NCBI GenBank assembly: GCA_964365025.1
Contig: CAYIOJ010000001.1
Location: forward strand, 42,475 to 106,474
Direction: 5' to 3'
Length of the DNA: 64,000 nucleotides
Source: an uncultured Gammaproteobacteria bacterium
GTDB lineage: Bacteria > Patescibacteriota > Patescibacteriia > Magasanikbacterales > UBA10003
Below the pieces are notes generated by a model. The model was not told the origin of the DNA, did no database searches, and worked only from the letters and a program-made list of their open reading frames with translations. Positions within the stretch are counted from its first letter, which is position 1; every line of letters begins with the position of its first letter. Positions 717 to 27,924 of this stretch are shown piece by piece. The position numbers were made by a program, and so were the translations under genes.

Positions 717-747
717 GAGGACGTTCTAACAAAACGTCCTCTTTTTT
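717..747 (+). terminator. Rho-independent terminator: 9-bp perfect stem gaggacgtt/aacgtcctc, 7-nt loop, then a T6 run.
   Basis: Inverted repeat 717-725 / 733-741 followed by tttttt 742-747, directly after the stop of the 39..677 CDS. Confidence 0.6.
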
Positions 748-5860: not shown

Positions 5861-5870
5861 ATTATTGATT

Positions 5871-8993: not shown

Positions 8994-9008
8994 AAAAAAA
9001 TTTTATAA

Positions 9009-11764: not shown

Positions 11765-11792
11765 AACAAGAATCCTCTAAATAAAAATTGTT

Positions 11793-12749
11793 TTAATTTT
11801 TAAAATATTCTTTATACCAAAGATATGTTTCCGCAATTCCATCTTCAAAACTTATTATCGGCACCCAATTTAATTTTTCTTTCGCCTTGGACCAGTCAAG
11901 ATACTGTGCCGGTATTTCATTTTTAGCGATATTCAGGACATTATATTTGATTGTCTGTCCCAAAATTTTTTCTATTCTGTTTATAACATCTATAACGCTA
12001 TAGATGTTCGTACTACCGAAGTTAAAAGCTTCTCCAGCCGCTATTTCTATGTTTTGAGCCAATTTTATACAACCATCAATTATGTCTTTAACATAAACAT
12101 ATTCTCTGACCATTTTTCCATCGCTTCTTACCGCCAGTTCAGCGTCTTTTATTGCCGCTTCTAATGCTCCCGGAATAATTCTGGAAAAATTAAAATCCCT
12201 GGGACCATAAACATTGCTGAATCTCGTTATAACGACTGGCAGGCCATAAGTTGAAAAAAATGCTTGGGCTATCAAATCGGCGGCCGATTTTGATACATCA
12301 TAAGGATGACTGCCTTTCAACGGAAAAAATTCTTTATAAGGCAATTCCTTCGTTCTACCGTATGCCTTATCGGAAGAAATAACAACGACAAATTTTAAAT
12401 CTCCTTTTTGTCTACATGCTTCCAATACATTTACCGTGCCCATGATATTTGTTTCCAGAGTTTCAACGGGATTTTCATAGGCCTTTTCAACAATTGGCTG
12501 CGCGGCTAGATGGAACACGCCATCTATTTTTTCTCTCTCCAAAATTTGAAAAATATTTTTGTCTCTAACATCAGCTTTGTAAAACCTAGCTTTAAGGTTT
12601 ATATTTTCTCTTTTTCCGCTGGATAAATTGTCAATCACAACAACATTGTGGCCCCTTTCTATCAGTTCATCTACTAAATGGGAGCCGATGAAGCCGCCTC
12701 CCCCTGTCACTAAAATATTTTTCGCTTTTAGTCCGTCCATATTTTCCAA
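11793..12749 (-). CDS. NAD-dependent sugar-nucleotide epimerase/dehydratase, plausibly CDP-hexose 4,6-dehydratase or epimerase.
   Basis: VTGGGGFIGSHL Rossmann motif, ISSDKAYG (resembling the SDKxY of CDP-glucose 4,6-dehydratases) and a YDVSK catalytic YxxxK. It lies next to rfbF. Confidence 0.5.
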   Translation of the reverse strand: MENMDGLKAKNILVTGGGGFIGSHLVDELIERGHNVVVIDNLSSGKRENINLKARFYKADVRDKNIFQILEREKIDGVFHLAAQPIVEKAYENPVETLETNIMGTVNVLEACRQKGDLKFVVVISSDKAYGRTKELPYKEFFPLKGSHPYDVSKSAADLIAQAFFSTYGLPVVITRFSNVYGPRDFNFSRIIPGALEAAIKDAELAVRSDGKMVREYVYVKDIIDGCIKLAQNIEIAAGEAFNFGSTNIYSVIDVINRIEKILGQTIKYNVLNIAKNEIPAQYLDWSKAKEKLNWVPIISFEDGIAETYLWYKEYFKN

Positions 12750-13519
12750 AAAGGATCATTTGTCCAATGTTCGTTCATCTCTTCCGCTTCTTTATGAGTA
12801 TCCATGCACTTCCATTTTCCTGGATGGCAATAAACGGAAAGCTGTCCTTTTTCCGCTAAAAGAGGAAACACGGCTTCAATCATGCCGCCCGGCGGTATCA
12901 GATTCAACACATCGCGATTAAAAACCATAAATCCGCCATTGATAAAATCTCTAGATAAATCATCTTTCATGCCCTGAGTTACTTTGTGCTGAAAAAAATC
13001 TTTAACTTTCTTGGCATCATGGTCAATATTTAAAAAACCAAACCGCGAGGCCGGTCGAACTCCCGTGACTGTCGCCAAAGCGTTTTGCGCCCGATGAAAA
13101 TCAACCAACTCTTTTATGTTTATATTACCCACACCATCTCCATAAGTCACCATAAAATCGTCACCGTCAATATATTTTGCTAATCGCCTGACACGTTCTC
13201 CGGTTAAAGTATCCTGGCCGGTTTCGGCAAAAGTAATCTTAAAATTGTCACACTCATCATTATGAAAAAAAATCTCATTAGATTTAGTATGGAGGGTAAA
13301 ATCGTTAATCAAGCCGCGCCAATTTAAAAAGTATTCTTTAATCATGTGACCCTTATAGCCCAAAGCCAAAACGAACTCATTGTAACCATGATGAGCATAT
13401 AATTTCATGATATGCCACAAAATCGGCTTGCTACCGACCAAAACAAGTGGTTTTGGCTTAAACTCGGTTTCCTCTTTCATTCTAGTGCCCACACCGCCGC
13501 AGAGAATGACTACTTTCAT
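12728..13519 (-). CDS. rfbF: Glucose-1-phosphate cytidylyltransferase (CDP-glucose synthase).
   Basis: MKVVILCGGVGTRMKEETEFKPKPLV...GSKPILWHIMK is the characteristic RfbF/DdhA N-terminus. The six-frame ORF runs to 13585, but MKVVILCGG at 13519 is the probable true start. Confidence 0.7.
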   Translation of the reverse strand: MKVVILCGGVGTRMKEETEFKPKPLVLVGSKPILWHIMKLYAHHGYNEFVLALGYKGHMIKEYFLNWRGLINDFTLHTKSNEIFFHNDECDNFKITFAETGQDTLTGERVRRLAKYIDGDDFMVTYGDGVGNINIKELVDFHRAQNALATVTGVRPASRFGFLNIDHDAKKVKDFFQHKVTQGMKDDLSRDFINGGFMVFNRDVLNLIPPGGMIEAVFPLLAEKGQLSVYCHPGKWKCMDTHKEAEEMNEHWTNDPFWKIWTD

Positions 13520-13556
13520 AAGCTCAAATATTAATGTCTTTTGAGATAAAATTGTA

Positions 13557-15350
13557 TCAAAAATCTTTAATTTTGTAAATATCAAAATTCATATCGGAAT
13601 AAACTCGCTTCATCCCAATTTTTTCCGGCTGCGCGCCGCTGTTTATCCGGCGATCTTTAACATAATAAGATACTTTATACTTTGTTAGGTAAGAACCAAT
13701 ATTTGGAACGATTTCCTTTGCGTACTTATCGTATAAATCCGTAAAATATTTTTCACCCTTTAGAGTAATCGGGTCTGTTTTTTCTCCACAATTTGCGCCA
13801 AACAAATTTAGACGGAAAAATTTACACAACACCACTTTGCGATTATAAATCTTAGCCGGATGAATTGCATTTCCTGAGCCCGCATATAATGCAAAATCTT
13901 TTTTAATATCATCTAAACTTAGTTGATTAAAATAGTTAGACACTAAATATCTTTCCTCTATCTCTTGCGATGGCACAAGCTGAAACAAGCCACCACCCAA
14001 GATGTAGTGTTTGGTTAACGTGGGAATATAGGCATTGGTCAACGAATCTGGTTCAGCCCAAACAACAACTGATTTGCTTTCCTCATTTTCTAGCCAACTT
14101 AAGGGTTCGTTCATTTTTTGATTATCAACAATATGTTGCCAAAGTCGCTGTCTGTTAAAAAAAGAATAAAGATAACCCTTGTAGTAAGAAACTAGGCCGA
14201 ACAAATATGTAAGACACAAAACAAAAATGATTATTTTTTTATATGAACAAAAAAGTTTAAATTGTGCCGCGCTATCTTTAATTAAAGACAAAAAAACAAT
14301 AAAAGCAAGCGGCATCCAAACTAAAATAAACCGCACAATGTGCTGGGCTAACTCTAAGTCTTTCCCGGTTATAACGTTGCTTGCGGAAACAATTATAAGC
14401 GAAAAACCGTTAATAACAAAAAAGATCATCAACAATCTATACATTTGATTCTCCCTTATTTTTTTGATCCAACAAAAAACAAAAAAACACAGCAGCATCA
14501 TAAGAACCACCCAACGGCCGGAATAAAATACCTCGGCGGTTGGCAAACGAGTTGAGACAAGACCAATTCTTTGCATGGTGTCCCAATAATATGGGTGGAT
14601 AATCTGTAAATACGTAAATATGAAAAGCGGCAACGAAAAAATAGTTGTCAAGCCCAATATTTTTATCAAACCAACAGTCATTTCTTTTTTCTTTGTTACC
14701 AGCCAAAACAAAAAAGCCAGCCCCAAAGCTGTGACAACAACCTGCCACAAATAAGTGTAAACGTAAAACGAAAGAGTTGATGACAATATCAATAGAACCG
14801 TCCTTTTTTTATTCTTATGGTCTTTTATCCAAAATAAAAATGAAAAAAGAAAAAATAAATAAAATGGAAAAATCGTTTGCATTGAAACCGTGGCCGTCAT
14901 TAAATAAAATACCTGAAAAAAAGTCAGCTCCGCGCCAAAGACACTTAGCCATTTTGACACACCGGCTTGTTGCAAAATACCATAAGCTAGAAAAACAAAT
15001 AACAAGGACCAGAGCATGTCATTGACAATCGTACCCCACTCCAAAAACAATCCCAATAACATCGGAATGGCGGCTAACCAATCGGCAAAAAAGAAAGCGG
15101 GCGGCAATTCATTGTTATATTCTATTAAAAATGGATTGCCAATAAACGGATGGCCGTCTAAAATCTCTCTTATCCGCGGCTCATAATATTTCCAGTCCCC
15201 ATGCACCGCACCGGTTATAGTAGCCGGACCAATCCATTTGAAATCCTTCGCGAAAAAAAGATTTATGACGGGCAAAGAAAGTAAAAAAATGGTTGCGGCC
15301 GCAAGCAATAATAAATGTTTATAACGAAATAAAATTTTTACCAATATCAT
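13557..15350 (-). CDS. Large polytopic membrane protein (>12 TM) with a C-terminal soluble domain; putative GT-C-type glycosyltransferase.
   Basis: 597 aa. The N-terminal 400 aa are almost entirely hydrophobic helices; the C-terminal 170 aa are soluble. It is adjacent to a DPM1-like GT2. Confidence 0.35.
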   Translation of the reverse strand: MILVKILFRYKHLLLLAAATIFLLSLPVINLFFAKDFKWIGPATITGAVHGDWKYYEPRIREILDGHPFIGNPFLIEYNNELPPAFFFADWLAAIPMLLGLFLEWGTIVNDMLWSLLFVFLAYGILQQAGVSKWLSVFGAELTFFQVFYLMTATVSMQTIFPFYLFFLFSFLFWIKDHKNKKRTVLLILSSTLSFYVYTYLWQVVVTALGLAFLFWLVTKKKEMTVGLIKILGLTTIFSLPLFIFTYLQIIHPYYWDTMQRIGLVSTRLPTAEVFYSGRWVVLMMLLCFFVFCWIKKIRENQMYRLLMIFFVINGFSLIIVSASNVITGKDLELAQHIVRFILVWMPLAFIVFLSLIKDSAAQFKLFCSYKKIIIFVLCLTYLFGLVSYYKGYLYSFFNRQRLWQHIVDNQKMNEPLSWLENEESKSVVVWAEPDSLTNAYIPTLTKHYILGGGLFQLVPSQEIEERYLVSNYFNQLSLDDIKKDFALYAGSGNAIHPAKIYNRKVVLCKFFRLNLFGANCGEKTDPITLKGEKYFTDLYDKYAKEIVPNIGSYLTKYKVSYYVKDRRINSGAQPEKIGMKRVYSDMNFDIYKIKDF

Positions 15351-16240
15351 ACTTTTTTTGCGATTATAAACATATTGTCTCTCAAATTGACAGGAAGGCT
15401 GATTCTGCCCAAAAAATTATTTTTAAAAATTTCTGTCAACCAGCGCCAAATAAAAATTTTCTGCCAATTATATAAAGTCTGGATTATATACTGTAGAGTA
15501 AATTTTTTACCAATATGGCAAACTGATAAAATCTCAAATCCGCAACTCTCTAACATTTTTGTCAAATTATTACGATTGAAAACAAATAAGTGCTCCGGCG
15601 GAGTCAATAAATGCCAGTTTTTGCCTAAAATAAGACTAAAAACACTATTAGTATCGGGCGTGTTGATAATTAACAATCCTCCGCTTTTTAATAATTGATG
15701 GGCCGCGGCCAACTCAGCTTTTGGGTCAGAAAGATGCTCAAACACATCTAAATAAGTTAACGCGTCAAAAAAACCAGATTTTGACAAAAGATCCTTGGTC
15801 GTGCCGCAAATTACGTCTAATCCACAATCTCGAGTGTGTTTGGCGGCATAATCCGATATCTCAACGCCGCTGACTTGCCACCCGCGCCGAGAAGCCAGTT
15901 GTAAAAAGCTGCCCAGGGCCGAACCCACATCCAACAATCTGCCTTTGGTGGGTAAAATTTTTTCTACTTTGTCTAAATAAACATTAAAAGTTTTCTTCAT
16001 AGCCGCCTTATCCTTTTCATAATCAACATAACCGTAACCCAGCGCGGCTCCTTTGAAATAATCTTTAGAATAAAGCCCTCCCGTGTTTTTTGGTATTGGC
16101 CAAACAAAAATTAAACCGCATTCCTGGCATCTATATATATTATAGTTATTTTTTTTGGTAAAAAAAATAACTATATCGCTCCGGCAGATAAGGCAAGCTA
16201 TTTCTCCCATATTGTATCGATTTTTTTCTTTATTTTCCAT
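15347..16240 (-). CDS. Class I SAM-dependent methyltransferase with N-terminal zinc ribbon.
   Basis: CLICRS...CQECG followed by LLDVGSALGSFL (motif I). Confidence 0.55.
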   Translation of the reverse strand: MENKEKNRYNMGEIACLICRSDIVIFFTKKNNYNIYRCQECGLIFVWPIPKNTGGLYSKDYFKGAALGYGYVDYEKDKAAMKKTFNVYLDKVEKILPTKGRLLDVGSALGSFLQLASRRGWQVSGVEISDYAAKHTRDCGLDVICGTTKDLLSKSGFFDALTYLDVFEHLSDPKAELAAAHQLLKSGGLLIINTPDTNSVFSLILGKNWHLLTPPEHLFVFNRNNLTKMLESCGFEILSVCHIGKKFTLQYIIQTLYNWQKIFIWRWLTEIFKNNFLGRISLPVNLRDNMFIIAKKV

Positions 16241-16917
16241 GGAGCTAAAATTCCTTCCTTAATAATATGATTGGAAATCTTTGATTCGCCATTCAATCTA
16301 TTTTTAAAAATTATAGGAATTTCTTTAAATTGCGCGCCGGCTTTCCACAATAAATACTTGAGCTCTATCTGAAAGGCGTAGCCAGACATATCCATGCGTG
16401 ATAAATCAATCTTTCGCAAAAAATCGGTTTTAATTAAATTAAACCCCCCGGTACAATCAAAAATCGGCATTTTAGTAATCAGGCGAGAGTACAAATTGCC
16501 GAATTTACTCAAAAAACGACGCCAAGCTTCCCAACCAACAGTGCCTCCGTTCTTCACATAACGCGACCCCACTACTACATCAAATTTTTTTGCCACCTCC
16601 AACAACTCGGGCAAATATTTTGGGTCATGCGAAAAATCCGCATCCATCATGATGACACATTCAACCAAATTGTCTTTTAAAATTAACTGAAAGGCGTCCA
16701 AATATGCCAGGCCAAGTCCTTCTTTGCGCGGTCTTTCAAAAAGAGATAAATTAGGATATTCTGATTGCAAACTTTTCACGACCTCCGAAGTTTTGTCCGG
16801 CGAGTTGTCGTCAACCACCAAAATTTTAATCCCCGGTGCCATTTTAAAAATAGCTGAAATAATACCCCCAATATTATCTCTTTCATTGTAGGTGGGAATA
16901 ATTATCAAATTCTCCAT
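16198..16917 (-). CDS. GT2 glycosyltransferase, DPM1-like polyprenyl-phosphate sugar synthase.
   Basis: IIIPTYNERDNI...VVDDNSPDKT...DADFSHDP is the typical dolichol/undecaprenyl-P mannose/glucose synthase core. Confidence 0.65.
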   Translation of the reverse strand: MENLIIIPTYNERDNIGGIISAIFKMAPGIKILVVDDNSPDKTSEVVKSLQSEYPNLSLFERPRKEGLGLAYLDAFQLILKDNLVECVIMMDADFSHDPKYLPELLEVAKKFDVVVGSRYVKNGGTVGWEAWRRFLSKFGNLYSRLITKMPIFDCTGGFNLIKTDFLRKIDLSRMDMSGYAFQIELKYLLWKAGAQFKEIPIIFKNRLNGESKISNHIIKEGILAPWKIKKKIDTIWEK

Positions 16918-16920
16918 AAT

Positions 16921-18024
16921 TTAAATAAAATTTTTATGCATTGGTTCGTGTCCGGTGGCCGGCGCCAATTTCGCGTCATTATTCTTCAAATCCCAAAGAA
17001 ATTCGTTGACTTTATGCTGTAAGCACAACGTGCCACACATGGTGCGAGCGTCAAACTTTTCTGAAGCGATTAAATTCATCACCTCCCAATATCGTTCACC
17101 TTGCCAAAGTTCTTTAAATGATGTCTCCGCGATATTGCCAATATGATATTTTTTGTATCTTTCATTGAAAAGCATGCCGCAGGGCGCCACTAACCCCGAA
17201 CCAGACATCTGCAAAATAAAAGGCGGACCAAAACATTGCGAGTATTTTCTTTTCCCGCCGCTCATTATCTTTGACCACTTCGCTTTAACCAAATAATCTT
17301 TAGTGGAATAGCTTTCTGCTTTTTTCAGCAGTTCCGTCAATTCAAAATATTTTGAATAATCAACCCCTAAACTCCCCTCCTCATCATCGCTACAATGCTT
17401 AATAACTAAATAATCAACTCCTAATTCTTGGCCTAATTTAGCCAGCGGCATGATTTGATCCTGAAACTGCGGCATCAAAACCATTTGCAATCCAATGGTC
17501 ACTGTTAAATCCTGCTGTTTTTTAATACGCACGGCATTTTTGATATTATCGCAAACTTGATAAAACGCCTGTTCTGGACAACCGTGTATTTCCGCGTATC
17601 TCTTGGGTTTGGCGGCCGAGATATTGAATCGCAAATAAGTCAAAGCCGGCAATATTTTTGCCAAATGAATTTCATTTAATAAATAACCATTGGTACCTAA
17701 AGCCATATCCAAACCATTAGCGCGACCCTGAACGATCGCGTCATATAAATATGGCGAACAAGTGCTTTCTCCGTCACTCACAAAACTAACGGCTTTCACG
17801 CCGATATCGGCGGCATCGTCCAAAAATTTAAACACTACTTCTTTGGTCATTCTTTTTATGTCATTAGCTTGAAGTTGGCCATAACAATAAACACAATGAT
17901 AATTGCAGGCGCGAGTTAGAGCGCAGTCAATAGTAATCGGGGCAATTCGCTCGCCACGCAACCATGCCTCTACGCGATCCTTGTGCCAATTCAATTTGTG
18001 ACCATCAAGAATGATTTCACTCAT
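16921..18024 (-). CDS. Radical SAM enzyme (paralog of 20762..21856).
   Basis: ALTRACNYHCVYCYG (Cx3Cx2C). C-terminal cysteines CGMLF...CGTLCLQHK and the shared C-terminal tail ...NFI match the paralog. Confidence 0.6.
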   Translation of the reverse strand: MSEIILDGHKLNWHKDRVEAWLRGERIAPITIDCALTRACNYHCVYCYGQLQANDIKRMTKEVVFKFLDDAADIGVKAVSFVSDGESTCSPYLYDAIVQGRANGLDMALGTNGYLLNEIHLAKILPALTYLRFNISAAKPKRYAEIHGCPEQAFYQVCDNIKNAVRIKKQQDLTVTIGLQMVLMPQFQDQIMPLAKLGQELGVDYLVIKHCSDDEEGSLGVDYSKYFELTELLKKAESYSTKDYLVKAKWSKIMSGGKRKYSQCFGPPFILQMSGSGLVAPCGMLFNERYKKYHIGNIAETSFKELWQGERYWEVMNLIASEKFDARTMCGTLCLQHKVNEFLWDLKNNDAKLAPATGHEPMHKNFI

Positions 18025-18725
18025 AAAATTTTATGACGAAGATAAATATCCGTGAATAAATCCAAAATTGTCAGTAAAACATAATAAACATTTTTCAATT
18101 TTAAAGCCCGTGATTGGCGTTGGGGCGGCTTAATTATCATTTCAATTTCTTTATAATGATAACCGGCTTTAATCAAACGCACCAAAATCGCCGACATATA
18201 AGCAAAATTGCTGGCAATGGGCGCCTTTTTGAGTAAATCGGTTTTAATTAAAGAGGGGCCGTTAAAATATCTCAAATTTAAGCCGAATAAAAAATTCAAA
18301 AAGTTGGTATAAATCGCGGAAATAAAACGACGAGACCAACTTCTAATTTTTTTATTAACAGTATAAGTAGTGACAATTTCGGCTGAACCTAAGGCCTTAA
18401 AAAGATTTTTAATGGTGCGCGAATCGGTTTCGTCGTCTCCGGGTAACATAACTGCATATTCCCCCCGCGCCATAGCCACGCCTTCACGAAAACAGCCGCC
18501 CAAATTTTGCGGTAGAGCATGATGGATAACTCGAATACGCGAACTAGACGACGCCAAAGCATCGGCGATTTCTCCGGTTTGGTCGGTGCTGCCGTCGTTA
18601 AAAATCAAAATTTCATAATCATTTCTTCCTGATAAGGCAGTCGAGATATTTCTCACGGCGCTGGCAATATTTTTTTCCTCATTCAAGGCCGGAACAATGA
18701 TTGATATATTAATATTCTCTTCCAT
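18021..18725 (-). CDS. GT2 family glycosyltransferase.
   Basis: ISIIVPALNEEKNI...IFNDGSTDQT...GDDETD (DxD-like). Confidence 0.6.
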   Translation of the reverse strand: MEENINISIIVPALNEEKNIASAVRNISTALSGRNDYEILIFNDGSTDQTGEIADALASSSSRIRVIHHALPQNLGGCFREGVAMARGEYAVMLPGDDETDSRTIKNLFKALGSAEIVTTYTVNKKIRSWSRRFISAIYTNFLNFLFGLNLRYFNGPSLIKTDLLKKAPIASNFAYMSAILVRLIKAGYHYKEIEMIIKPPQRQSRALKLKNVYYVLLTILDLFTDIYLRHKIL

Positions 18726-18731
18726 AAAATG

Positions 18732-19775
18732 CTAAAAAGAACCGTCAAATTTCTTAACATATTCTTCCGTTGGTTGAATCTCCTTCATCTGCGTTTGATT
18801 TTTACCAAGCACTTCCCAAACGGCCGAAACAATCTGGCCAGCTTGCGGGTAGAAAAATTCTTCCAATTTGTAGCTGGTGGGAGACGGTGATTCTGCCAAA
18901 CTTATCCGTTTAATCGGCGCTCGTAAATAAGACATGGCCTCCTCGGCCACGGTAGCGGCAATTTCGCTGGCCAGGCCGCACATTAAATGACCAGTATCAG
19001 CCACTACCAAATGACCGGTTTTTGTGACTGATGTCAAAACAGTTTGCTTATCCCACGGCTTTAAAGATCGCAAATCAATAATTTCCGCCTTTATTCCTTT
19101 TTCCGCCAAAATGGCGGCGGCTTTCATTGCTTCCAAAACCATCTGAGATATAGCGACGATAGTAACATCATCGCCTGATCTCATTATTTTGGCCGATCCC
19201 AAAGGAATGGTGTAATACTCTGTCGGAACGTCGCCAATTTCTTTATGCAACCAACGATGTTCTATAAAAATCACCGGACATTTTTCTTTAAAACTAGACA
19301 ACAGTAAGCCTTTCGCGTCATAAGGAGTAACTGGCATGACTACTTTTAATCCGGGTATATGCACAAATAATGATTGCAAACTTTGTGAATGTTGCGGCCC
19401 CTGGCCCCAGCCGCGGCCGATGATCGCCCGTAAAATAATCGGCGCGGACATCCGACCGCCATAAGTATAGCTCCATTTAGCCGCGTGATTAACGATTTGA
19501 TCCATGGCCAAAAGCATAAAATCATCACGCGCATATACCAGCATAGGGTGCATCCCCATCACGGCCGCGCCCAGAACCACGCCAGTTAAAGCATTTTCAG
19601 ACAGCGGCGTATCTTCCACTCTTTTTGAACCAAACTTCAAAAAGGCCTCGCGAGTGGTATTAAAAATACCAGCGGCGTCATCGACTCCCTCGCCTAACAC
19701 AAAAATTTCCGGCTGTCTCTCCATGGCGAGAACAATTGCTTCGCTAACGGCTTGGGCATAGGTAATCTCACGCAT
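18732..19775 (-). CDS. Alpha-ketoacid dehydrogenase / transketolase-like E1 component, beta subunit.
   Basis: N-terminal REAIxxAM-like MREITYAQAVSEAIVLAMERQPEIFVLGEGV. 347 aa with a C-terminal transketolase-C-like region. Confidence 0.65.
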   Translation of the reverse strand: MREITYAQAVSEAIVLAMERQPEIFVLGEGVDDAAGIFNTTREAFLKFGSKRVEDTPLSENALTGVVLGAAVMGMHPMLVYARDDFMLLAMDQIVNHAAKWSYTYGGRMSAPIILRAIIGRGWGQGPQHSQSLQSLFVHIPGLKVVMPVTPYDAKGLLLSSFKEKCPVIFIEHRWLHKEIGDVPTEYYTIPLGSAKIMRSGDDVTIVAISQMVLEAMKAAAILAEKGIKAEIIDLRSLKPWDKQTVLTSVTKTGHLVVADTGHLMCGLASEIAATVAEEAMSYLRAPIKRISLAESPSPTSYKLEEFFYPQAGQIVSAVWEVLGKNQTQMKEIQPTEEYVKKFDGSF

Positions 19776-19777
19776 AT

Positions 19778-20758
19778 CTAAACAGGATAAACAAATTTTA
19801 ATAAATCTTCTTGGCTGGGAAAAGGACTGTTTTTAGCAAAATTAACCGCCCCCTCAATCTCTTCTGACAAATCTTTGGTAATTTTATTCTTTTCGTCCAG
19901 AGAAAGGATTTGTTCACTCAAAAGATAATCCTCAAATGTTCTAACAGGACAATGCTTCATCCAGTCGCTAACTTCGCACGCCGGACGATGGCCATGCTCC
20001 TGGTCGCAATTAGGGCCAACATGCTCGCGCCAACGATAGGTGCGACACTCCAAAAGAGTCGGACCATTGCCAAAACGCGCCCGCGCTATCGCTTCCTGGC
20101 CTGCTTGATACACGGCCAAGACATCATTACCATCTACAGCCTGTCCGGGCATATTAAAGGCGGCGGCATGAGTAAAAATATCCATATTTTTGCGCCGCGC
20201 TTCCAGACGAGACAAAACCGCATAAAAATTATTTTCGCAAACAAAAACTATTGGTAAATTTTTTAAAGACGCGTAATTCAAGCTCTCAAAAAAAACGCCT
20301 TCGTCAGCTCCGCCATCGCCAAAAAAACTTATTGCCACTCTTTTTTCATCGCGTTTCTGGAAAGCTAACGCTGCTCCAGTTGCAATGGGAATAGTGCCGC
20401 CGACAATAGACGAAGCGGCTATAAAACCAGTCTGGGGAGCCGTCAAATGCATTGAACCGCCGATACCTCGGCTGCAACCAGTGACCTTGCCATAAAGTTC
20501 AGCCAGCATTTCTTTAATTGACCCGCCCATAGCCAAATAATGAGCATGACAGCGATGATGGCTGAAGACGGCGTCAGTCGGCCCCAAAAGTTGGCAAATC
20601 CCAGCGGCAATCGCTTCTTCGCCGATCGACAAATGAGTGGGACAACGCATCTCTTGTTCCGGATACAACTCAATAATCTTTTCGCTTACCAAACGGATCT
20701 TCAACATTCTATAATAAAGATCTTTTAAAATTTCCGGCAATACATTTTCAGCTTTCAT
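19778..20758 (-). CDS. TPP-dependent dehydrogenase E1 component, alpha subunit.
   Basis: TPP-binding GDGGADEG...NN motif (FFGDGGADEGVFFESLNYA...VCENN); 326 aa. Confidence 0.65.
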   Translation of the reverse strand: MKAENVLPEILKDLYYRMLKIRLVSEKIIELYPEQEMRCPTHLSIGEEAIAAGICQLLGPTDAVFSHHRCHAHYLAMGGSIKEMLAELYGKVTGCSRGIGGSMHLTAPQTGFIAASSIVGGTIPIATGAALAFQKRDEKRVAISFFGDGGADEGVFFESLNYASLKNLPIVFVCENNFYAVLSRLEARRKNMDIFTHAAAFNMPGQAVDGNDVLAVYQAGQEAIARARFGNGPTLLECRTYRWREHVGPNCDQEHGHRPACEVSDWMKHCPVRTFEDYLLSEQILSLDEKNKITKDLSEEIEGAVNFAKNSPFPSQEDLLKFVYPV

Positions 20759-20761
20759 ATA

Positions 20762-21856
20762 TTAAATAAAATTAACGTGTTCGGGCGGTTGATTTTTGAG
20801 CTGCCACAAAAAGCGATTGACTTCGTCCATCCGGCAATTATTACGGCATTCGGTGATATTAAAATTATCCTTCAACAAAGCCCAATTATTTTTTCTTTTT
20901 TCTCCTTCCCAAATTTCAACAAACGATTGCTGGTTGATGTTGCCGCAGTTGAATCGTTCATCGCTTAAAAAAGCGCTGCAACTGTATAAATCTCCGTTAG
21001 CCATAAGATAGGCCCAGAAAAACGGCGTGGCATGGCAGATTTGGTAAGATTTTTCTTGCGCGTCCCACTTTTTCATGGTGCGATCGCGGAAGATGGCGCT
21101 AAATTTATCATCGGATATTTTTTTTAATTCTTCCGCCAATCCTAAAAATGATTCGTATTTAATGTCTTCATAGCGCTTAGTCAAACTAAAATGATGTTGC
21201 GAGTACGGTTTGACGACAAAATAATCTAAACCAATTTCTTTCAACAGATTAGCTAAAGCTACGACCTCGTGCTTATTTTCTGGCAATAAAATCATCTGCG
21301 CTCCCAGTGTGCAATTAAGGCCTCCGGCCCTTTTGATTTCTACAGCTCTTTTCAAATTTTGAATCACGCGATGGAAATCATCCGATTGAGCGCGGTGGAT
21401 TTGTTGATATGTCTCGGGTGAGCCGGCATTTAAACTAACCTTAATCCAGGTGATTGAAGACAGAGCTTTTTGTAAAAATTTCTCTGAAAGCAGAACGCCA
21501 TTAGTTGTGTAGGAGACATCAATGCCGGAGGACTTCGCGTGATTGGTTAACTCAATAATTTGCGGATGCAACAAGGGTTCGCCTTCTCCGCCAAACATGA
21601 CGCTTTTGACTTTTTTCTCGCCCATTTGCGTCAAAGCGGATGTTAATTTTTCCGTATTTAAAAATACCGGTTTGTAGCCAATATAATCCACGGCGCAAAA
21701 AACACAACGATGATTGCAGGCGCCGGAAGGCGAAATTTCAATATAGATAGGATAAACTTTTTTGGCCTTTTCCCAGTCATCGCCGGCTTGCAGCCATTCA
21801 GCTACGCGCTCCGGATGATAAACTATTTTTTGGTTGTCTATACCGTATTTATCCAT
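20762..21856 (-). CDS. Radical SAM enzyme (paralog of 16921..18024).
   Basis: SPSGACNHRCVFCAV (Cx3Cx2C), GGEGEPLL SAM motif, C-terminal cysteines CSAFLSDERFNCG...CRNNC, ends ...VNFI. Confidence 0.6.
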   Translation of the reverse strand: MDKYGIDNQKIVYHPERVAEWLQAGDDWEKAKKVYPIYIEISPSGACNHRCVFCAVDYIGYKPVFLNTEKLTSALTQMGEKKVKSVMFGGEGEPLLHPQIIELTNHAKSSGIDVSYTTNGVLLSEKFLQKALSSITWIKVSLNAGSPETYQQIHRAQSDDFHRVIQNLKRAVEIKRAGGLNCTLGAQMILLPENKHEVVALANLLKEIGLDYFVVKPYSQHHFSLTKRYEDIKYESFLGLAEELKKISDDKFSAIFRDRTMKKWDAQEKSYQICHATPFFWAYLMANGDLYSCSAFLSDERFNCGNINQQSFVEIWEGEKRKNNWALLKDNFNITECRNNCRMDEVNRFLWQLKNQPPEHVNFI

Positions 21857-21994
21857 AATTTTAAACTTAAACTACCATCATAATTTATCAAAAAATAGTA
21901 ATTATGTCAAAATTCCGCCAAAAAAAAGTGCCCGACGGATTAGTTCTTTTTTTGAGAACATCCGCAAGGCACTGATAAGTTGTTTTATATGGCT

Positions 21995-22690
21995 CTAACT
22001 AAGGTTTTCAATCAGGGCGGGAACATTGATTTCCCGCCAGTCAAAAAAGACGCGACAGGCGCCTGCATCAACAAGAGCGCCGACAGTTGAACCGCGAATG
22101 ACGACTGGCATGCCGACGGCCTTGGAGCCGGCAGCAATAGCGGCCTGCACGCCGCGAGGTGAATCCTCAAAGACGAGCTGTTGGCGCGGATCGATTCCCA
22201 TGATCGAGGCCGTTTTCAGGAAAACATCAGGCGCCGGTTTGAGCCGCTTAACATGCTCACGAAGAATGATGCTGTCCCTTCCGAAATGGTCCAAAAGGCC
22301 AGACCCTTCCAGAAGCCGCCCCGCCTCCTGTTCTGGCGTGAGCGAGCCAATGGAGACGGAGATATTCAAGCCACGGACAGTTTTCAGGAAGCCGAAGAAT
22401 CCTGGCCTAGCAGAAATCGCCGTACCCGCAAGGTTCTCTCTGTAGTAATGCTCCGTGCGTTGACGAATATAATCTGACGATATTGACTTCTGCTGTTCAG
22501 CATTCAACAGATTCCAGATGTCCACGTGGACATCTGGCCCGCCAATGAAACGAGGAAGTCTAACCAAGGCCTCTTCATACGAAAGATCGATTCCGACCTC
22601 CTTTGCTGAAGCAAGGTGCGCGGCATGATGAGCCGCCTCAACATCAACGACAGTACCTTCTAGGTCAAAAGCGATGCCACGAATTAACAT
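21995..22690 (-). CDS. HAD-superfamily hydrolase (beta-phosphoglucomutase-like subfamily IA).
   Basis: IRGIAFDLEGTVVD (DxxGT motif I) and C-terminal FEDSPRGVQAAIAAG (motif III/IV). The region is GC-rich. Confidence 0.55.
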   Translation of the reverse strand: MLIRGIAFDLEGTVVDVEAAHHAAHLASAKEVGIDLSYEEALVRLPRFIGGPDVHVDIWNLLNAEQQKSISSDYIRQRTEHYYRENLAGTAISARPGFFGFLKTVRGLNISVSIGSLTPEQEAGRLLEGSGLLDHFGRDSIILREHVKRLKPAPDVFLKTASIMGIDPRQQLVFEDSPRGVQAAIAAGSKAVGMPVVIRGSTVGALVDAGACRVFFDWREINVPALIENLS

Positions 22691-22694
22691 GGTA

Positions 22695-23579
22695 CTACTC
22701 TCCTTTCTTGAGGGCGAGCCAAAGACTCGACCCTACGATGAGGGTTCCGCCGATCACTACTTGTGTCGTCAGTGGTTCGCGCAGGATCAAAAACGCGTAC
22801 ACGATCGCAAAGACCGGTTCACTCTTCCCAAGAATTGAAACGTGCAGTGAACGCGTCTTGCTGATTCCGTAGTTGTGGATTCCGGAAGCAACGACAGCAA
22901 AGGCCAGGCCGAAACCGATGAGTGGAATGACGTCAGAACTCTGCAACTCTCCCAGTTTCATCCAAGGCGTGACGGCAAGGAGGAGCACGGTGCTCATCGC
23001 ATACCGCCAGAAGTTTACCGCGCTGATCGTAATGCCCCTATCTGGATTGAGAATCGTGCGATAAAGCACGATGAGAAAAGCGTAAAAAAGTCCGGAAATC
23101 ACGCCGAGCGTAATTCCCACTAGATGGGATTTCTCACCACTCGTTCCGAGCTGATTGCTGTAGAGCGCCACAATGCCCGCAAGAGAAACAACGAGCGCCA
23201 CCCATTCATCTTTACGCGTACGCTCACGTAGTAGAAGCGGTGCGAGAATCAAAAGAAAAATCGAAACCGATTGATGTGCTACTGCCGCGTTCGCCACCGA
23301 TGTCATGGTGAACGCGAAAAAGTAACACAAGTCGTTCATGGTTGCTGTTACAGCAAGCGTGGCAAGAAGAATGTAATCGCGTTTCGTAAGGCGGGGCATT
23401 CCCTGGAGGCGGGCAATGATAAAAAAACTTATCATGCCGACCACCTGAAATATGCCCAGAAATGTGAGAGGAGAAATCTGCGGGCAGAGCCGCAAAAAAA
23501 GTGAGTATGACCCAAATATCGCCATAGCAACTAGTACGAGTAGGTCACCGGAAAATGTCCGCTTGGTTTCCATGGCCAA
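22695..23579 (-). CDS. DMT/EamA-family transporter.
   Basis: 294 aa, 10 predicted TM helices in a two-repeat arrangement; GC-rich codon usage. Confidence 0.45.
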   Translation of the reverse strand: MAMETKRTFSGDLLVLVAMAIFGSYSLFLRLCPQISPLTFLGIFQVVGMISFFIIARLQGMPRLTKRDYILLATLAVTATMNDLCYFFAFTMTSVANAAVAHQSVSIFLLILAPLLLRERTRKDEWVALVVSLAGIVALYSNQLGTSGEKSHLVGITLGVISGLFYAFLIVLYRTILNPDRGITISAVNFWRYAMSTVLLLAVTPWMKLGELQSSDVIPLIGFGLAFAVVASGIHNYGISKTRSLHVSILGKSEPVFAIVYAFLILREPLTTQVVIGGTLIVGSSLWLALKKGE

Positions 23580-23648: not shown

Positions 23649-23678
23649 AAAAAAACCGCCTTGAGTTATTCAAAGCGG
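23649..23678 (-). terminator. Rho-independent terminator for the 23698..24459 gene (minus strand).
   Basis: On the minus-strand RNA, CCGCUUUG/CAAGGCGG forms an 8-bp stem (one G-U wobble) with a 7-nt loop, followed by a U7 run (A-run 23649-23655 on the plus strand). Confidence 0.5.
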
Positions 23679-23697
23679 CAGGGACTGTCTTTTGGTT

Positions 23698-25155: not shown

Positions 25156-25181
25156 AAAAAAAGTCAAGACGCGGCTTGACT
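25156..25181 (-). terminator. Rho-independent terminator ending the minus-strand heptose / radical SAM operon.
   Basis: 7-bp stem agtcaag/cttgact with loop acgcgg. On the minus-strand RNA it is followed by U7 (plus-strand A-run 25156-25162), 34 nt downstream of the 25215 stop. Confidence 0.55.
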
Positions 25182-25214: not shown

Positions 25215-26648
25215 TTATTTATCTTCTGTGCTAGAAAAAATATTTTTGGACTTGAACAATTTAGGGAAGAAAGTCTGCAAACCGAAATAAATATCCAAAA
25301 ACAAAGTTTTATTTTTAAGAGACAACCACACTCTTCTTAAAAGATAACGCGGATTAAAATAAAAATTTTGATAATACTTTTCTAATATCTCATGTGACAA
25401 GTTGGGATGATTGTAAATATCACCGGCCTGATGAAGGTTGTAAAGACGCCAGTCGCGACTCTTAATCAACCCCTGACTCTCACATTGAGAGTACAACTCC
25501 GTGCCTGGGAAAGGAACGGTGATGGTAACTTTGGCATAATCCGGTACCAAATCCAAGGCCAGTTTAGTGGTCTTCTTCAAACTTTCTTCGGAATCAGCCG
25601 GCAAACCAAACATGAAAAAGCCAATACTTTCCAGTCCCGCCTTTCTGACCAGCTTCATAGCGGCATAACTATCTTCAACTTTAATATTTTTGCAAATGGA
25701 ATCCAGACTGGCCTGATCACCGGATTCAAATCCAATTGATACTTGATATAGCCCCGCCCGCTTGGCTAAATTGAGAAACTCCAAATCCATTGAATCAACT
25801 CGCAATCCGGCCGACAGTGTCCATGGAAATTTCAAATTTCTTTGAATTATCAGTTCACAAATTTTTTTCGCCCTCGCCATATCTGTAGTGAACATATCAT
25901 CAAGAATACGGATCTCCCTTATGCCGCAATTTAACATATATTCAATTTCATCTACCGCCAACTCAACCGAACGGGCGCGAAAACGCCGGCCAAAAATATT
26001 TTTGTTACAAAAAGTACAGCCAAAAACGCAGCCGCGACTGCTCATATAATTACACATCGGACTCAAACGATTTAAAACGCGCGGACATTTATATCTTTTT
26101 AGGTCAAACAAATCCAACGCTGGGAATGGCAGCCAATTCAAATCGTTAGTCGGAAAACGCGGCGGGGTGTTTAAAATTTGTCCTTCTTCTTTATAATAAA
26201 TACCGGCAACTTCTTTTAATGGCTTTTCTTTTAAAATATCAACCAGTGTCAGTTCACCCTCGCCATAAATTAAAATTTCAAAATGAGAATCTCGCAATGT
26301 TTCAACGGGTAGTGCGGTGGCATGTGGTCCGCCAATAATCAATTTTGTTCTATTGCCCAAGTGATCTTTAATAATTTTACTTAAAGTGACGGCTTCAAAA
26401 AAAAGCGGGGTGGTGGCGGTTAAGCCAATAAATCGCGGATTATATTCGTCCAATTTTTTGTGCAAAAGCCGATATGGATTAAGCTCAATGCCTAAATCAA
26501 TAATTTTAACCTTAAATCTTTCTTTACGCGCCGCCGCGGCGAGATAAGCAAAAGACAACAAAGGATAATTTTGCGTCGCGGCATTAATCCTGGTGCCGGA
26601 ATAGGAAGAAAAAGCCGATGGTAAGTTGATCAATAATAAATCCACCAT
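25215..26648 (-). CDS. Cobalamin-binding radical SAM enzyme (class B).
   Basis: N-terminal B12-binding-like domain, then MSSRGCVFGCTFCNK (Cx3Cx2C); 477 aa. Confidence 0.65.
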   Translation of the reverse strand: MVDLLLINLPSAFSSYSGTRINAATQNYPLLSFAYLAAAARKERFKVKIIDLGIELNPYRLLHKKLDEYNPRFIGLTATTPLFFEAVTLSKIIKDHLGNRTKLIIGGPHATALPVETLRDSHFEILIYGEGELTLVDILKEKPLKEVAGIYYKEEGQILNTPPRFPTNDLNWLPFPALDLFDLKRYKCPRVLNRLSPMCNYMSSRGCVFGCTFCNKNIFGRRFRARSVELAVDEIEYMLNCGIREIRILDDMFTTDMARAKKICELIIQRNLKFPWTLSAGLRVDSMDLEFLNLAKRAGLYQVSIGFESGDQASLDSICKNIKVEDSYAAMKLVRKAGLESIGFFMFGLPADSEESLKKTTKLALDLVPDYAKVTITVPFPGTELYSQCESQGLIKSRDWRLYNLHQAGDIYNHPNLSHEILEKYYQNFYFNPRYLLRRVWLSLKNKTLFLDIYFGLQTFFPKLFKSKNIFSSTEDK

Positions 26649-26650
26649 AT

Positions 26651-27286
26651 TTAATCAGTTCTAATTTCACCTTCTATTTTATCAACTGCGGCTGAAAAAA
26701 CATCCACAGCCGCATATTTATTATTAGTCAGTGATAAAACCTTAACCTTTTCAAATTCATTAATATATTTTTCGTCTTTTATAATAATTCCACAACCGCC
26801 GGCATTAACGCCCATTGCAGCATCATCAAAACGATTGCCAATGGCAAAAATACGATGTTGCGTGTAATCAATACCAAGCTCCTTGGCTGCTTTATCTAAC
26901 ATCCCTATGCTGGGCTTACGCAAAGACGTGGCGTCCTTGACCACCCAAGGCGTGTTTAAATCTAGGCCTTGTTTAGAGGCCCAATCAAAATCAACAAAAG
27001 GGCAAATTTGCCAATTATCAATAATAGCGCCAGCGGCGCGCAATAATTTATCAATTTCCTTGTTAATATCCAAAATCGTTTCTAAACTAAAATAGCCGCG
27101 AGCCACTCCAAACTGATTGCTCGCGACTATGACTTTGGCGAAAAGATTTAACCTTTTAATTCCCTCAACCACCCCGTCTAACAATCGCAATTGTTTGTGC
27201 CAATCCGGGTCGCGGCCAAACCAGCCGGGATCAAAATTAATCGTGCCGTCGCGATCCAAAATCACCAAAATTTTGTTCCGCAACAT
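26651..27286 (-). CDS. gmhB: HAD-IIIA hydrolase, D-glycero-D-manno-heptose 1,7-bisphosphate phosphatase-like.
   Basis: ILVILDRDGTIN (the GmhB DRDGT motif) and the GNRFDD motif IV. Confidence 0.55.
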   Translation of the reverse strand: MLRNKILVILDRDGTINFDPGWFGRDPDWHKQLRLLDGVVEGIKRLNLFAKVIVASNQFGVARGYFSLETILDINKEIDKLLRAAGAIIDNWQICPFVDFDWASKQGLDLNTPWVVKDATSLRKPSIGMLDKAAKELGIDYTQHRIFAIGNRFDDAAMGVNAGGCGIIIKDEKYINEFEKVKVLSLTNNKYAAVDVFSAAVDKIEGEIRTD

Positions 27287-27294
27287 AGATAAAT

Positions 27295-27924
27295 TTAAAC
27301 AAGATTATTAAGCGGGCCGCCGCCATTTCTTTCATTGGTGGTGATAAATTGATTTCTATAAAAAACAATCTGCTCCAAAATGCAATCGCAAATAAGCAAA
27401 TGAGTGGATTCAACTTTATTAAAATGCTTGCTCGCCACGTGAAAATTAAGATTACCGACTTTGCGCAAACGATTGGTCGGTTCAAAACCGGAAAAAGTAA
27501 TAATATGACAACCGCAACGACGCGCTTCTTCTGTTGCCAAGACAATATTTTCGGAATTTCCTGACGAACTTATGGCCACTAAAACATCACCGGCATCGGC
27601 AAACATATTGATTGGTCTAGCGAAGACATGGCTGTAACCAAAATCATTACTAACGCAAGTCAAAAGCGCGTCGTCGCTAAAACTAACGCCTCTAACTTTT
27701 CCGGTAAACCAAAAATCCAAGGCCTTGTGATTAGCCACCGCGGCGCTGCCGCCATTGCCGATAAAAATCACCTTTTTCCCTTTGGAATTGGAAGAAATTA
27801 TTAAATCGGTGGCCTCGCGAATACCCAGACGAAAATCCATGGTTTGGCTGTTCAAGTCAGTAACTTGAGTGCCTAAAAATAAATCATGAATGTTCTGTAT
27901 GTAATTATGCACTAATTCATCCAT
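27295..27924 (-). CDS. gmhA: SIS-domain sedoheptulose-7-phosphate isomerase.
   Basis: KVIFIGNGGSAAVANH is the characteristic GmhA GNGGSAA motif. 209 aa, SIS-domain length. Confidence 0.7.
   Translation of the reverse strand: MDELVHNYIQNIHDLFLGTQVTDLNSQTMDFRLGIREATDLIISSNSKGKKVIFIGNGGSAAVANHKALDFWFTGKVRGVSFSDDALLTCVSNDFGYSHVFARPINMFADAGDVLVAISSSGNSENIVLATEEARRCGCHIITFSGFEPTNRLRKVGNLNFHVASKHFNKVESTHLLICDCILEQIVFYRNQFITTNERNGGGPLNNLV

Follow-up and report, generated by a model that had tools for sequence, protein, structure and literature searches.

A candidate sugar-branching E1 alpha/beta enzyme without E2 or E3 partners in cell-envelope glycan loci of Patescibacteria and many other phyla

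Carbon-branching enzymes and the E1 pair of the window

Three classes of thiamine diphosphate (ThDP) enzyme are known or proposed to attach carbon branches to keto sugars, namely the YerE-like enzymes, the E1-type enzymes of the alphaKADH2 superfamily and the split transketolases (PMC12247030), and it is with the second class that this study is concerned, through a pair of genes encoding the alpha and beta subunits of an E1-like enzyme in a 64,000-nt stretch of an uncultured Patescibacteria genome (GenBank assembly GCA_964365025.1, contig CAYIOJ010000001.1, positions 42,475 to 106,474, hereafter the window). E1-type sugar branching has been described from actinomycete antibiotic clusters, with one enzyme assayed in vitro (PMC12247030, PMC4753412, PMC4802897). 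It is assigned to the aldgamycin, kosinostatin, avilamycin, paulomycin and kibdelomycin pathways, approximately 120 secondary-metabolite clusters with such enzymes have been reported, KbDH-alpha/beta showed in vitro activity on pyruvate together with keto-sugar analogues, dihydro-2H-pyran-3(4H)-one and 2-methyl-tetrahydro-4H-pyran-4-one among them, and the branch's keto group may later be reduced, methylated, oxidised or transaminated (PMC12247030). The genetic evidence for AviB1/B2 and Plm8/9 has been summarised, as has the flavoprotein nature of YerE (PMC4753412, PMC4802897). The YerE-like enzymes act in lipopolysaccharide sugars, and the split transketolases of miharamycin and amipurimycin have a proposed branching role only (PMC12247030).

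The window pair is closest in kind to the AviB-type systems (AviB1/AviB2, Plm8/Plm9, also known as Pau11/Pau12, the aldgamycin pair and KbDH-alpha/beta), with which it shares separate alpha and beta E1 subunits without E2 or E3, a place among sugar-nucleotide tailoring genes and glycosyltransferases, and the chemistry proposed for it, the addition of a pyruvate-derived two-carbon (C2) unit to a keto sugar; the two are likened here by description and gene content, not by sequence, and no named AviB- or Plm-like protein was among the E1 matches listed in the protein searches. The AviB-type systems differ in belonging to secondary-metabolite clusters and in using dTDP-deoxyhexoses, while the window is a cell-envelope glycan locus of a kind found in Patescibacteria and many other phyla, and the clade of the window pair is set apart by heptose-type activation, by DesII-like radical S-adenosylmethionine (SAM) enzymes and by a family 2 glycosyltransferase (GT2), resembling polyprenyl-phosphate glycosyltransferases (GTs), for which fusion to E1 beta is frequent. 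The aminotransferases beside the E1 pair in many relatives of the window recall kibdelomycin, whose branch is transaminated.

Two other families bear comparison. The YerE-like lyases (yersiniose, erwiniose, caryophyllose) have the same overall reaction type and also occur in surface-polysaccharide loci, but YerE is a single-chain member of the decarboxylase superfamily rather than an alpha2beta2 E1 enzyme, and its known acceptor is CDP-3,6-dideoxy-4-keto-glucose. The E1 components of the pyruvate dehydrogenase (PDH), acetoin dehydrogenase and branched-chain 2-oxoacid dehydrogenase complexes share with the window pair the fold, the ThDP motif, the catalytic Glu and the two catalytic His residues at 38-47% identity; the window pair departs from them in having no E2 or E3 nearby, in falling into a separate clade, in the extended or fused C-terminus of E1 beta and in altered loops beside both catalytic His residues. 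From this comparison and from the analyses below, the window pair is very probably an E2-independent glycan-tailoring enzyme and not a catabolic E1. A more specific reading, for which the chances are about even, is that it is a lipoyl-independent ThDP carboligase which, by analogy with the AviB-type systems, would attach a C2 unit taken from pyruvate to a keto sugar made from a nucleotide-activated, heptose-type precursor and hand the product to the adjacent or fused polyprenyl-phosphate GT-like enzyme.

An E1 lineage without E2 and E3

Both E1 genes are intact open reading frames (ORFs) on the minus strand, lying exactly where the original prediction had placed them and giving strong Pfam matches (Table 1). 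They are tightly packed in a block with the order radical SAM/SPASM, E1 alpha, E1 beta, GT2, radical SAM/SPASM, GT2, in which neighbouring genes are 2-6 nt apart or overlap by 4 nt, and the predicted flanks of the pair, with a radical SAM gene on the upstream side and a GT2 gene on the downstream side, are thereby borne out. The window as a whole is one long glycan locus with nearly all of its genes on the minus strand. The pair has the domains of the heterotetrameric 2-oxoacid dehydrogenase E1 fold (alphaKADH2 superfamily). E1 alpha scores below the PDH equivalog model (TIGR03182, 315 bits against a cut-off of 394), E1 beta below its curated model (NF006667, 314 against 321), and the NF008854 score of 299 is likewise under its cut-off of 454, no curated equivalog score of the catabolic E1s being reached. 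An identical copy of the E1 alpha sequence has been recorded in a Patescibacteria metagenome-assembled genome from Hainich groundwater.

Lipoyl, 2-oxoacid_dh and Pyr_redox Pfam domains were absent from all of the approximately 50 window ORFs scanned (at least 100 aa), and phmmer searches with Escherichia coli AceF and Lpd (E ≤ 10) against six-frame ORFs of at least 40 aa gave no match in the window, in 10 kb of its left flank, which holds further glycan genes, or in approximately 3.3 kb of its right flank, which holds a sigma factor gene and others. This negative result is meaningful because the same queries, serving as a positive control, readily detected E2, and often E3, beside canonical E1 operons. 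The predicted lack of a lipoamide acyltransferase and a dihydrolipoamide dehydrogenase in the window was thus confirmed, and over the flanks searched neither lies just outside it.

The evolutionary position of the pair was examined with the best 80 genomic relatives of E1 alpha in species-representative genomes together with metagenomic neighbours, every six-frame ORF of the fetched loci being scored with the window proteins, AceF and Lpd. Loci like the window contain glycan genes without E2 or E3, and the remaining loci mostly have E2 near the E1 pair. In a neighbour-joining tree of concatenated alpha and beta subunits (71 loci, simple corrected distances), the 38 E2-less loci, including the window, form a single clade in 100 of 100 bootstraps, and none of the 28 E2-linked operons falls inside it. 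E2 is nearby in 28 of the 33 non-clade loci of the tree, mostly directly after E1 beta, while E2 and E3 are missing within 10 kb from every one of the 38 clade loci (and from all 43 when plasmid additions are included). Grouping of the subunits with catabolic E1s, which the original prediction had named as an outcome that would refute it, is thus not seen.

The clade has members in Patescibacteria, Brocadiaceae, Omnitrophota, Elusimicrobia, Rokubacteria, Acidobacteria, Chlamydiia, Legionellaceae, cyanobacteria (Microcoleus), Polynucleobacter and others, and nearly all of its loci are glycan loci, where the neighbours of the pair are sugar-nucleotide genes, DesII/BlsE-like radical SAM genes, DegT aminotransferase genes and GT2 genes. 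When pairs carried on plasmids of Azospirillum oryzae, Solidesulfovibrio magneticus RS-1 and two strains of Streptomyces are added, they fall into it, with bootstrap support still at 100 of 100. Complete versions of the cassette are present in A. oryzae KACC 14407 (plasmid NZ_CP054615, 4732-16498), with the order short-chain dehydrogenase/reductase (SDR), SDR, PfkB, SIS, SDR, E1 alpha, E1 beta, DegT, DegT, hypothetical gene and radical SAM, and in S. magneticus RS-1 (pDMC1, 5100-17993), with the order GHMP kinase, E1 alpha, E1 beta, Fcl-like, DegT, SDR, nucleotidyltransferase and PMT-like GT. A further match of the tblastn search against plasmids, in Embleya, proved to be an ordinary E2-linked operon.

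The ThDP-binding and catalytic residues are retained in both the clade and the E2-linked groups. E1 alpha of the window has the ThDP motif (G147-D148-G149...N176-N177) and the residues His42 and His246, and E1 beta has Glu60 and His129; alpha His246 aligns with human alpha His263 and beta His129 with Geobacillus stearothermophilus beta His128, and we take the aligned residues to have the roles assigned to them in the E1 literature. Residues specific to the clade are found close to these sites. In the alpha subunit they are P40 (aligned with human alpha Phe61), Y74, R188, G248, P249 and D252, the last three shortly after the catalytic His246, and in the beta subunit they are R83, three residues ahead of the ThDP-stacking Phe, W123-Q125-G126 just ahead of the catalytic His129, R174 and Y309. 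Judged from these substitutions, the acceptor would be a changed, probably anionic one rather than lipoamide. The C-terminus of E1 beta differs as well: 29 of the 38 clade members have either 25-44 additional residues there or the fused GT2, while in every one of the 28 E2-linked E1 betas the end lies 6-10 residues or less from the reference point. In the Geobacillus E1, the C-terminal region of the beta subunit helps to bind the peripheral-subunit-binding domain of E2.

Cassettes, glycosyltransferases and apparently exchangeable ThDP modules

Two arrangements of genes recur around the clade pairs. The first, in Patescibacteria, Brocadiaceae, Omnitrophota and Elusimicrobia, runs SDR, HldE-like, GmhA-like SIS, GmhB-like haloacid dehalogenase-type (HAD) phosphatase, radical SAM, E1 alpha, E1 beta, GT2 and radical SAM, and the second, in Microcoleus, Legionellaceae and Azospirillum, runs HldE-like, SIS or HAD, SDR, E1 alpha, E1 beta, DegT and DegT. 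A basal subclade has an unrelated GHMP-kinase/nucleotidyltransferase route in place of the HldE-like protein. Of the 38 clade loci, 26 have a heptose-type activation set no more than 10 kb away (HldE-like in 19, GHMP kinase-type in 7, with the window counted), and the HldE-like gene occurs together with the E1 pair in 18 of the 37 clade loci other than the window. The genes of the window that correspond to the first arrangement, and others discussed below, are listed in Table 1.

Table 1. Genes of the window relevant to the E1 pair, with the family assignments on which their names are based
Feature	Coordinates	Strand	Size, domains and scores
E1 alpha (ThDP/PP domain), E2-less clade	19778-20758	-	326 aa; Pfam E1_dh 1.3e-71
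E1 beta (PYR and C-terminal domains), C-terminal extension of ~30 aa	18732-19775	-	347 aa; Transket_pyr 3.6e-25, Transketolase_C 2.5e-36
rSAM1, radical SAM/SPASM, candidate generator of the keto-sugar acceptor	20762-21856	-	Pfam Radical_SAM and SPASM
GT2a, polyprenyl-phosphate glycosyltransferase-like GT2	18021-18725	-	Pfam Glycos_transf_2; no transmembrane helices
rSAM2, radical SAM/SPASM, paralogue of rSAM1	16921-18024	-	Pfam
Second GT2, AglJ/dolichyl-phosphate-hexose transferase-like	16198-16917	-	Pfam, NCBIfam
HldE-like nucleotidyltransferase and PfkB kinase	27937-29472	-	CTP_transf_like residues 34-144, PfkB 198-493
GmhA-like SIS isomerase	27295-27924	-	Pfam SIS_2; NCBIfam gmhA 94 bits, below cut-off
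GmhB-like HAD phosphatase	26651-27286	-	NCBIfam PRK08942 85 bits, below cut-off
Epi32, SDR of epimerase/oxidoreductase type	32085-33068	-	motif ASSSCYG, YxxxK
YfhO-family GT-C, candidate final transferase from lipid-linked sugar	29520-32072	-	Pfam YfhO
EamA-family transporter, candidate flippase	22695-23579	-	Pfam EamA 1.2e-33
ALS/YerE-like ThDP enzyme, second carboligase candidate	746-2416	-	TPP_enzyme_N, M and C domains
Glucose-1-phosphate cytidylyltransferase-like	12728-13585	-	TIGR02623 273 bits, cut-off 300
CDP-glucose 4,6-dehydratase-type SDR	11793-12749	-	motif SSDKAYG

The HldE-like protein has the domain order reversed relative to E. coli HldE, the nucleotidyltransferase being N-terminal and the PfkB kinase C-terminal, and its best NCBIfam models are rfaE domains I and II, with scores below the cut-offs. 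Its family is almost always paired with an SDR of the Epi32 type, and homologues of Epi32 (336-632 bits) adjoin the HldE-like gene in most related loci. The conserved cassette SDRs were considered as keto-forming 4,6-dehydratases and set aside, their motifs (ASSSCYG and YASSSSVYG) being of the epimerase/oxidoreductase type. In one Omnitrophota locus (L008), a gene of the GT9 heptosyltransferase family directly precedes the radical SAM gene. Heptose is the best guess from these family matches for the sugar that the cassette would activate.

The nearest solved relatives of rSAM1 are DesII, BlsE and viperins, and its gene is immediately upstream of E1 alpha in the Patescibacteria, Brocadiaceae, Omnitrophota and Elusimicrobia loci. 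DesII and BlsE act on nucleotide sugars, DesII producing a 3-keto sugar, and this kinship would be in line with the proposed keto-sugar pathway. The paralogue rSAM2 follows GT2a in related loci as well (L004, L005, L008, L014, L021, L113 and L121) and is present in Azospirillum; no solved relative of it was found at E ≤ 1e-3.

In other genomes E1 beta and the GT2 are physically linked: in locus L005 both are encoded by one uninterrupted 580-aa ORF, and a database search returned at least 12 different proteins of 540-613 aa in which E1 beta is joined to the GT2, with 41-61% full-length identity to the query and both domains conserved, one of them annotated as Patescibacteria. A homologue search with GT2a added neither names nor further fusions. 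In a Foldseek search of the PDB with an AlphaFold2 (AF2) model of GT2a (pLDDT 94.9), the top 19 matches were ArnC, GtrB and DPMS (TM-scores of 0.64-0.80 over approximately 222-242 alignment columns). At 234 aa, GT2a is shorter than these chains (296-355 aa) and lacks their C-terminal transmembrane segment.

This fold recalls the Arn pathway, in which ArnA and ArnB produce a modified UDP-sugar by way of a 4-keto intermediate before ArnC, ArnE/F and ArnT act, and the EamA transporters and the GT-C proteins of the window (YfhO and a PMT_2 protein) fit the same logic, in which a sugar is modified, loaded onto a lipid, flipped and transferred. The gene for the YfhO protein is kept in five related loci (L001, L004, L007, L108 and L169). 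The window differs from the Arn system in the missing C-terminal helices of GT2a and in the sugar and its modification, and it is by inference from their families that the EamA and YfhO/PMT_2 proteins are taken as candidate flippases and final transferases of a system that would load a sugar on a lipid, flip it and transfer it outside.

The ThDP module itself appears to be exchangeable. With the HldE-like protein as query, 80 metagenomic loci were fetched, and among the 29 with at least 8 kb of downstream sequence a ThDP enzyme is encoded in 25 (86%): 8 of these have an E1 pair, 12 a split transketolase, 3 the two together and 2 an enzyme resembling acetolactate synthase (ALS). These are the same three classes that have been listed for sugar branching (PMC12247030). 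The position after the first radical SAM gene is occupied by an E1 pair (the window, L113, L121) or a split transketolase (L107, L114, L117), and that beside the DegT pair by an E1 pair (L009, L011, L022, L073, Azospirillum) or a transketolase (L112, L130, L141); in L111 a GT2 gene adjoins the split transketolase. In L102 and L119 the ALS-like gene lies between both radical SAM genes and follows the first of them after a gap of 0.5-1.2 kb, without being immediately adjacent, so that the match to the slot is less exact. Split transketolase pairs occur in 15 of the 29 loci (for example L153 6557-8352, L117 6548-8297 and L111 14615-16383). They often fill the E1 position in related cassettes (after rSAM1, by GT2a and by the DegT pair), as counterparts of the miharamycin and amipurimycin enzymes; unlike those branching candidates they look like ordinary split transketolases, one scoring 211 bits against a biochemically active split transketolase, and they may serve either in precursor supply or as an alternative sugar-branching enzyme. 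Strict alternation of the two modules was rejected, both being present in 3 of the 29 loci.

The ALS-like gene of the window is a second ThDP enzyme of the same locus. It has the three domains of its family and a sub-threshold match to the acetohydroxyacid synthase (AHAS) model of NCBIfam (347 against a cut-off of 538), and the earlier view that two ThDP-dependent carboligase candidates occur in one glycan locus stands on domains and gene context. Besides the window, 9 clade loci contain both this gene and the E1 pair. In Omnitrophota L008, its homologue comes directly after genes of the glucose-1-phosphate cytidylyltransferase and CDP-glucose 4,6-dehydratase types and before a NeuB-cupin fusion, and the window carries the same gene set, more widely spaced. 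The ALS-like enzyme, likened to YerE by domains and gene context only, would suit a YerE-like branching step of its own, with a CDP-hexose as acceptor. The NeuB-family synthase with the C-terminal cupin fusion is encoded at 4319-5860 (minus strand) in the window and at 17542-19053 in L008.

Proposed pathway, competing explanations and minor features

The pathway that would accommodate these genes begins with the GmhA-like isomerase, the HldE-like kinase/nucleotidyltransferase and the GmhB-like phosphatase, which together would yield a nucleotide-activated heptose-type sugar, on which an SDR, the DesII/BlsE-like rSAM1 or both would then introduce a keto group. The E1 pair, as an alpha2beta2 ThDP enzyme of the 2-oxoacid dehydrogenase E1 fold working without lipoyl-E2 and E3, would convert pyruvate to hydroxyethyl-ThDP and add the C2 unit to the sugar carbonyl, giving a higher sugar with a C-acetyl or 1-hydroxyethyl branch. 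The adjacent GT2 would place the branched sugar on polyprenyl phosphate, an EamA-type transporter would flip the lipid-linked sugar, and a GT-C of the YfhO or PMT_2 type would transfer it to a surface polymer or protein, with further decoration by radical SAM, B12-radical SAM and methyltransferase steps. The DegT pairs beside many E1 pairs fit this scheme, since branch ketones are reported to be transaminated in later steps (PMC12247030). The original prediction of acetyl- or hydroxyethyl-branched sugars is therefore strengthened by the E2-less clade, the glycan context and the GT2 fusions, and is modified in one respect, as the acceptor would likely derive from a heptose-type nucleotide sugar and not from a classical dTDP-deoxyhexose.

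A broader proposal can be put forward only tentatively, with the balance somewhat against it. It is that of a widespread and unrecognised route to a C2-branched or extended, heptose-derived envelope sugar of the nine-carbon class, in which an E1 carboligase is docked or fused to a polyprenyl-phosphate GT, a radical SAM enzyme of the DesII kind provides the keto acceptor anaerobically, and the ThDP module is interchangeable (E1, split transketolase or YerE-like). The hosts of such a route would include Patescibacteria, anammox bacteria, Omnitrophota, cyanobacteria, Azospirillum and others.

Several observations weigh against the assignment of the E1 pair as a carboligase for a heptose-type sugar, or against parts of it. 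While gene content, conservation and fold are directly observed, the carboligase chemistry is argued from analogy. The heptose-pathway enzymes match heptose models best, but all of them below the cut-offs, and the sugar may not be a heptose; moreover, heptose-activation genes are missing within 10 kb from 12 of the 37 clade loci other than the window, these being mostly truncated contigs or loci with DegT, Bac_transf and methyltransferase genes. Neither conserved SDR has a 4,6-dehydratase motif that would mark it for the keto-forming step. The cassette transketolases resemble the housekeeping type, to judge by their sequences, and may simply supply sedoheptulose-7-phosphate, and the mutual exclusion of E1 and transketolase is marginal (Fisher one-sided p = 0.046, two-sided p = 0.06, n = 29). 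Finally, the Streptomyces members of the clade (L175, S. griseofuscus pSGRIFU1, 12004-17534, and L179, S. albogriseolus pSALBX2) adjoin genes for a 1103-aa non-ribosomal peptide synthetase (NRPS) condensation-domain protein, an acyl carrier protein (ACP), a phosphopantetheinyl transferase, a thioesterase and a ketosynthase, with no sugar genes. This NRPS/polyketide synthase context means that clade membership alone leaves the acceptor unfixed and that the acceptor is not always a sugar.

The best surviving alternative, in our estimate an unlikely one, moves the E1 pair to the start of the pathway as an early ketose-phosphate synthase. It would act in the manner of transketolase or DXS, adding a C2 unit to an aldose phosphate to give sedoheptulose-7-phosphate or octulose-8-phosphate, which would then be activated by the GmhA/HldE/GmhB-like enzymes; the lincosamide octose route (LmbR/N/P/K/O) follows a matching logic. 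The presence of a ThDP enzyme in 86% of the HldE-like loci with enough flanking sequence, a split transketolase being the commonest, agrees with such a role, as does the score of the cassette transketolase against an active one; the sub-threshold scores of the GmhA/HldE/GmhB-like proteins and the swapped HldE order are compatible with a non-canonical sugar, and a phosphate might be held by those Arg and His residues that are specific to the clade and lie close to the active site. The E1 beta-GT fusions, however, tie the pair to the last cytoplasmic step rather than the first, and three loci (L027, L029 and L087) contain only DegT, Bac_transf and methyltransferase genes, with no isomerase/kinase set within 10 kb. 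A pyruvate donor would also be expected to give a 1-deoxy-ketose, which an aldose-ketose isomerase could not use, and keto-sugar branching is a documented role of E1-type enzymes.

Still less probable, though not negligible, is a role of the pair in acyl transfer or decarboxylation, in which it would decarboxylate a sugar-borne 2-oxo acid, such as a ulosonic acid made by the NeuB-cupin protein, or provide an activated C2 or acyl group with which an amino sugar would be N- or O-acylated or which would be passed to a carrier, as E1-E2-ACP systems do. In bacillosamine-type loci an N-acyltransferase is expected between DegT and Bac_transf, and it is precisely there that the E1 pair sits in L027, L029 and L087. 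DegT aminotransferases flank the pair in many other loci, and the known E1-type branch ketone, which is transaminated, already explains these neighbours. The NeuB-cupin gene shares the locus with the pair in the window but is absent from most clade loci. The Streptomyces members beside condensation-domain and ACP genes speak for an acyl role, as does a more distant relative in Desulfotalea that belongs to an E1-E2-ACP-lipoate ligase operon; the conversion of hydroxyethyl-ThDP to acetyl-ThDP needs an oxidant (lipoamide, FAD or an iron-sulfur cluster), however, and none is encoded beside the E1 pair.

An ordinary catabolic pyruvate, acetoin or branched-chain 2-oxoacid dehydrogenase E1 with its E2 and E3 elsewhere in the genome is very improbable and was rejected in view of the separate clade, the gene neighbourhood and family scores short of the cut-offs: the best family models are those of PDH E1 alpha and beta, relatives are annotated as PDH or acetoin E1s, all catalytic residues are kept, and approximately 43 kb of the 107-kb contig and the remaining genome lie outside the E2/E3 search, but the scores are under both equivalog cut-offs, the clade is separate in 100 of 100 bootstraps with E2 or E3 within 10 kb in 0 of 38 loci as against E2 in 28 of 33 non-clade loci, the pair is set with gaps of 2-6 nt inside a co-directional glycan gene array, and the C-terminus of E1 beta is extended or fused to a GT2.

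With a sugar-branching carboligase as the preferred reading, what is new here relative to the actinomycete systems is a distinct E2-less E1 lineage that is a standard part of surface-glycan pathways across many, mostly uncultivated, phyla, together with new partners for E1-type sugar branching in the form of heptose-type activation genes, radical SAM enzymes and a GT for the lipid carrier that is fused to the E1. If the reading is true, it predicts new branched higher sugars on the surfaces of candidate phyla radiation (CPR) and anammox bacteria, corrects the routine annotation of such genes as pyruvate dehydrogenase E1, which skews the metabolic reconstruction of reduced genomes, and would provide new ThDP carboligases that form tertiary alcohols as well as a natural case of a ThDP enzyme fused to a glycosyltransferase. 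Literature searches on heptose with E1 and radical SAM enzymes and on Patescibacteria glycosylation returned nothing relevant, and reports on anammox S-layer glycans describe heptose chains with no connection to the genes of the E1 cassette. Testing is possible in cultured carriers, namely A. oryzae KACC 14407, S. magneticus RS-1, Polynucleobacter sp. IMCC30228 and Microcoleus species, and the plasmid cassettes of the first two are amenable to genetics.

Some further features of the window were recorded. A promoter-like site on the minus strand (21882-21910; TTGACA, 17 nt, TAAATT, and a TG upstream) is located in the gap of 138 nt that precedes the radical SAM-E1 block, and terminator-like hairpins on the same strand are found at 23655-23679 and 25162-25181. 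Together these hint at a separate sub-operon for the block; the promoter and terminator scan of the window gave weak, non-significant sites only, overall barely above the shuffled expectation. The region of this sub-operon also encodes a 597-aa protein (13557-15350, minus strand) with no Pfam or NCBIfam match, which is kept in related Patescibacteria loci and duplicated in L004 (15032-18725). A HAD phosphatase (21995-22690, minus strand) has 231 aa in the window and in L002, and is called as a 136-aa fragment (8069-8479) in L001, another assembly of the same population, where a frameshift or a strain variant is possible.

Eight radical SAM genes are present in the locus (7971-8993, 9009-10670, 10667-11764, 16921-18024, 20762-21856, 25215-26648, 41404-42759 and 43740-45185), four of the SPASM type, three with B12-binding domains and one with the radical SAM domain only, and these, with at least five SAM methyltransferases, suggest that the glycan is heavily C- and O-modified. 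A UbiA-family prenyltransferase (46326-47252) and two Wzy_C/O-antigen-ligase-like proteins with C-terminal TPR repeats (49912-52128 and 56279-58591) are encoded on the minus strand in the upstream portion of the locus.

One of the very few plus-strand genes of the window is a 1084-aa ORF (52281-55535) with Cys-rich Dicty_CTDC repeats (2.4e-30) and a GC content of approximately 0.54, against approximately 0.38 around it. The GC-rich stretch at 52-56 kb was considered as rRNA and rejected, as an Rfam scan of the window gave no match, and the spurious-looking minus-strand ORFs that overlap the 1084-aa ORF are probably a by-product of its composition.

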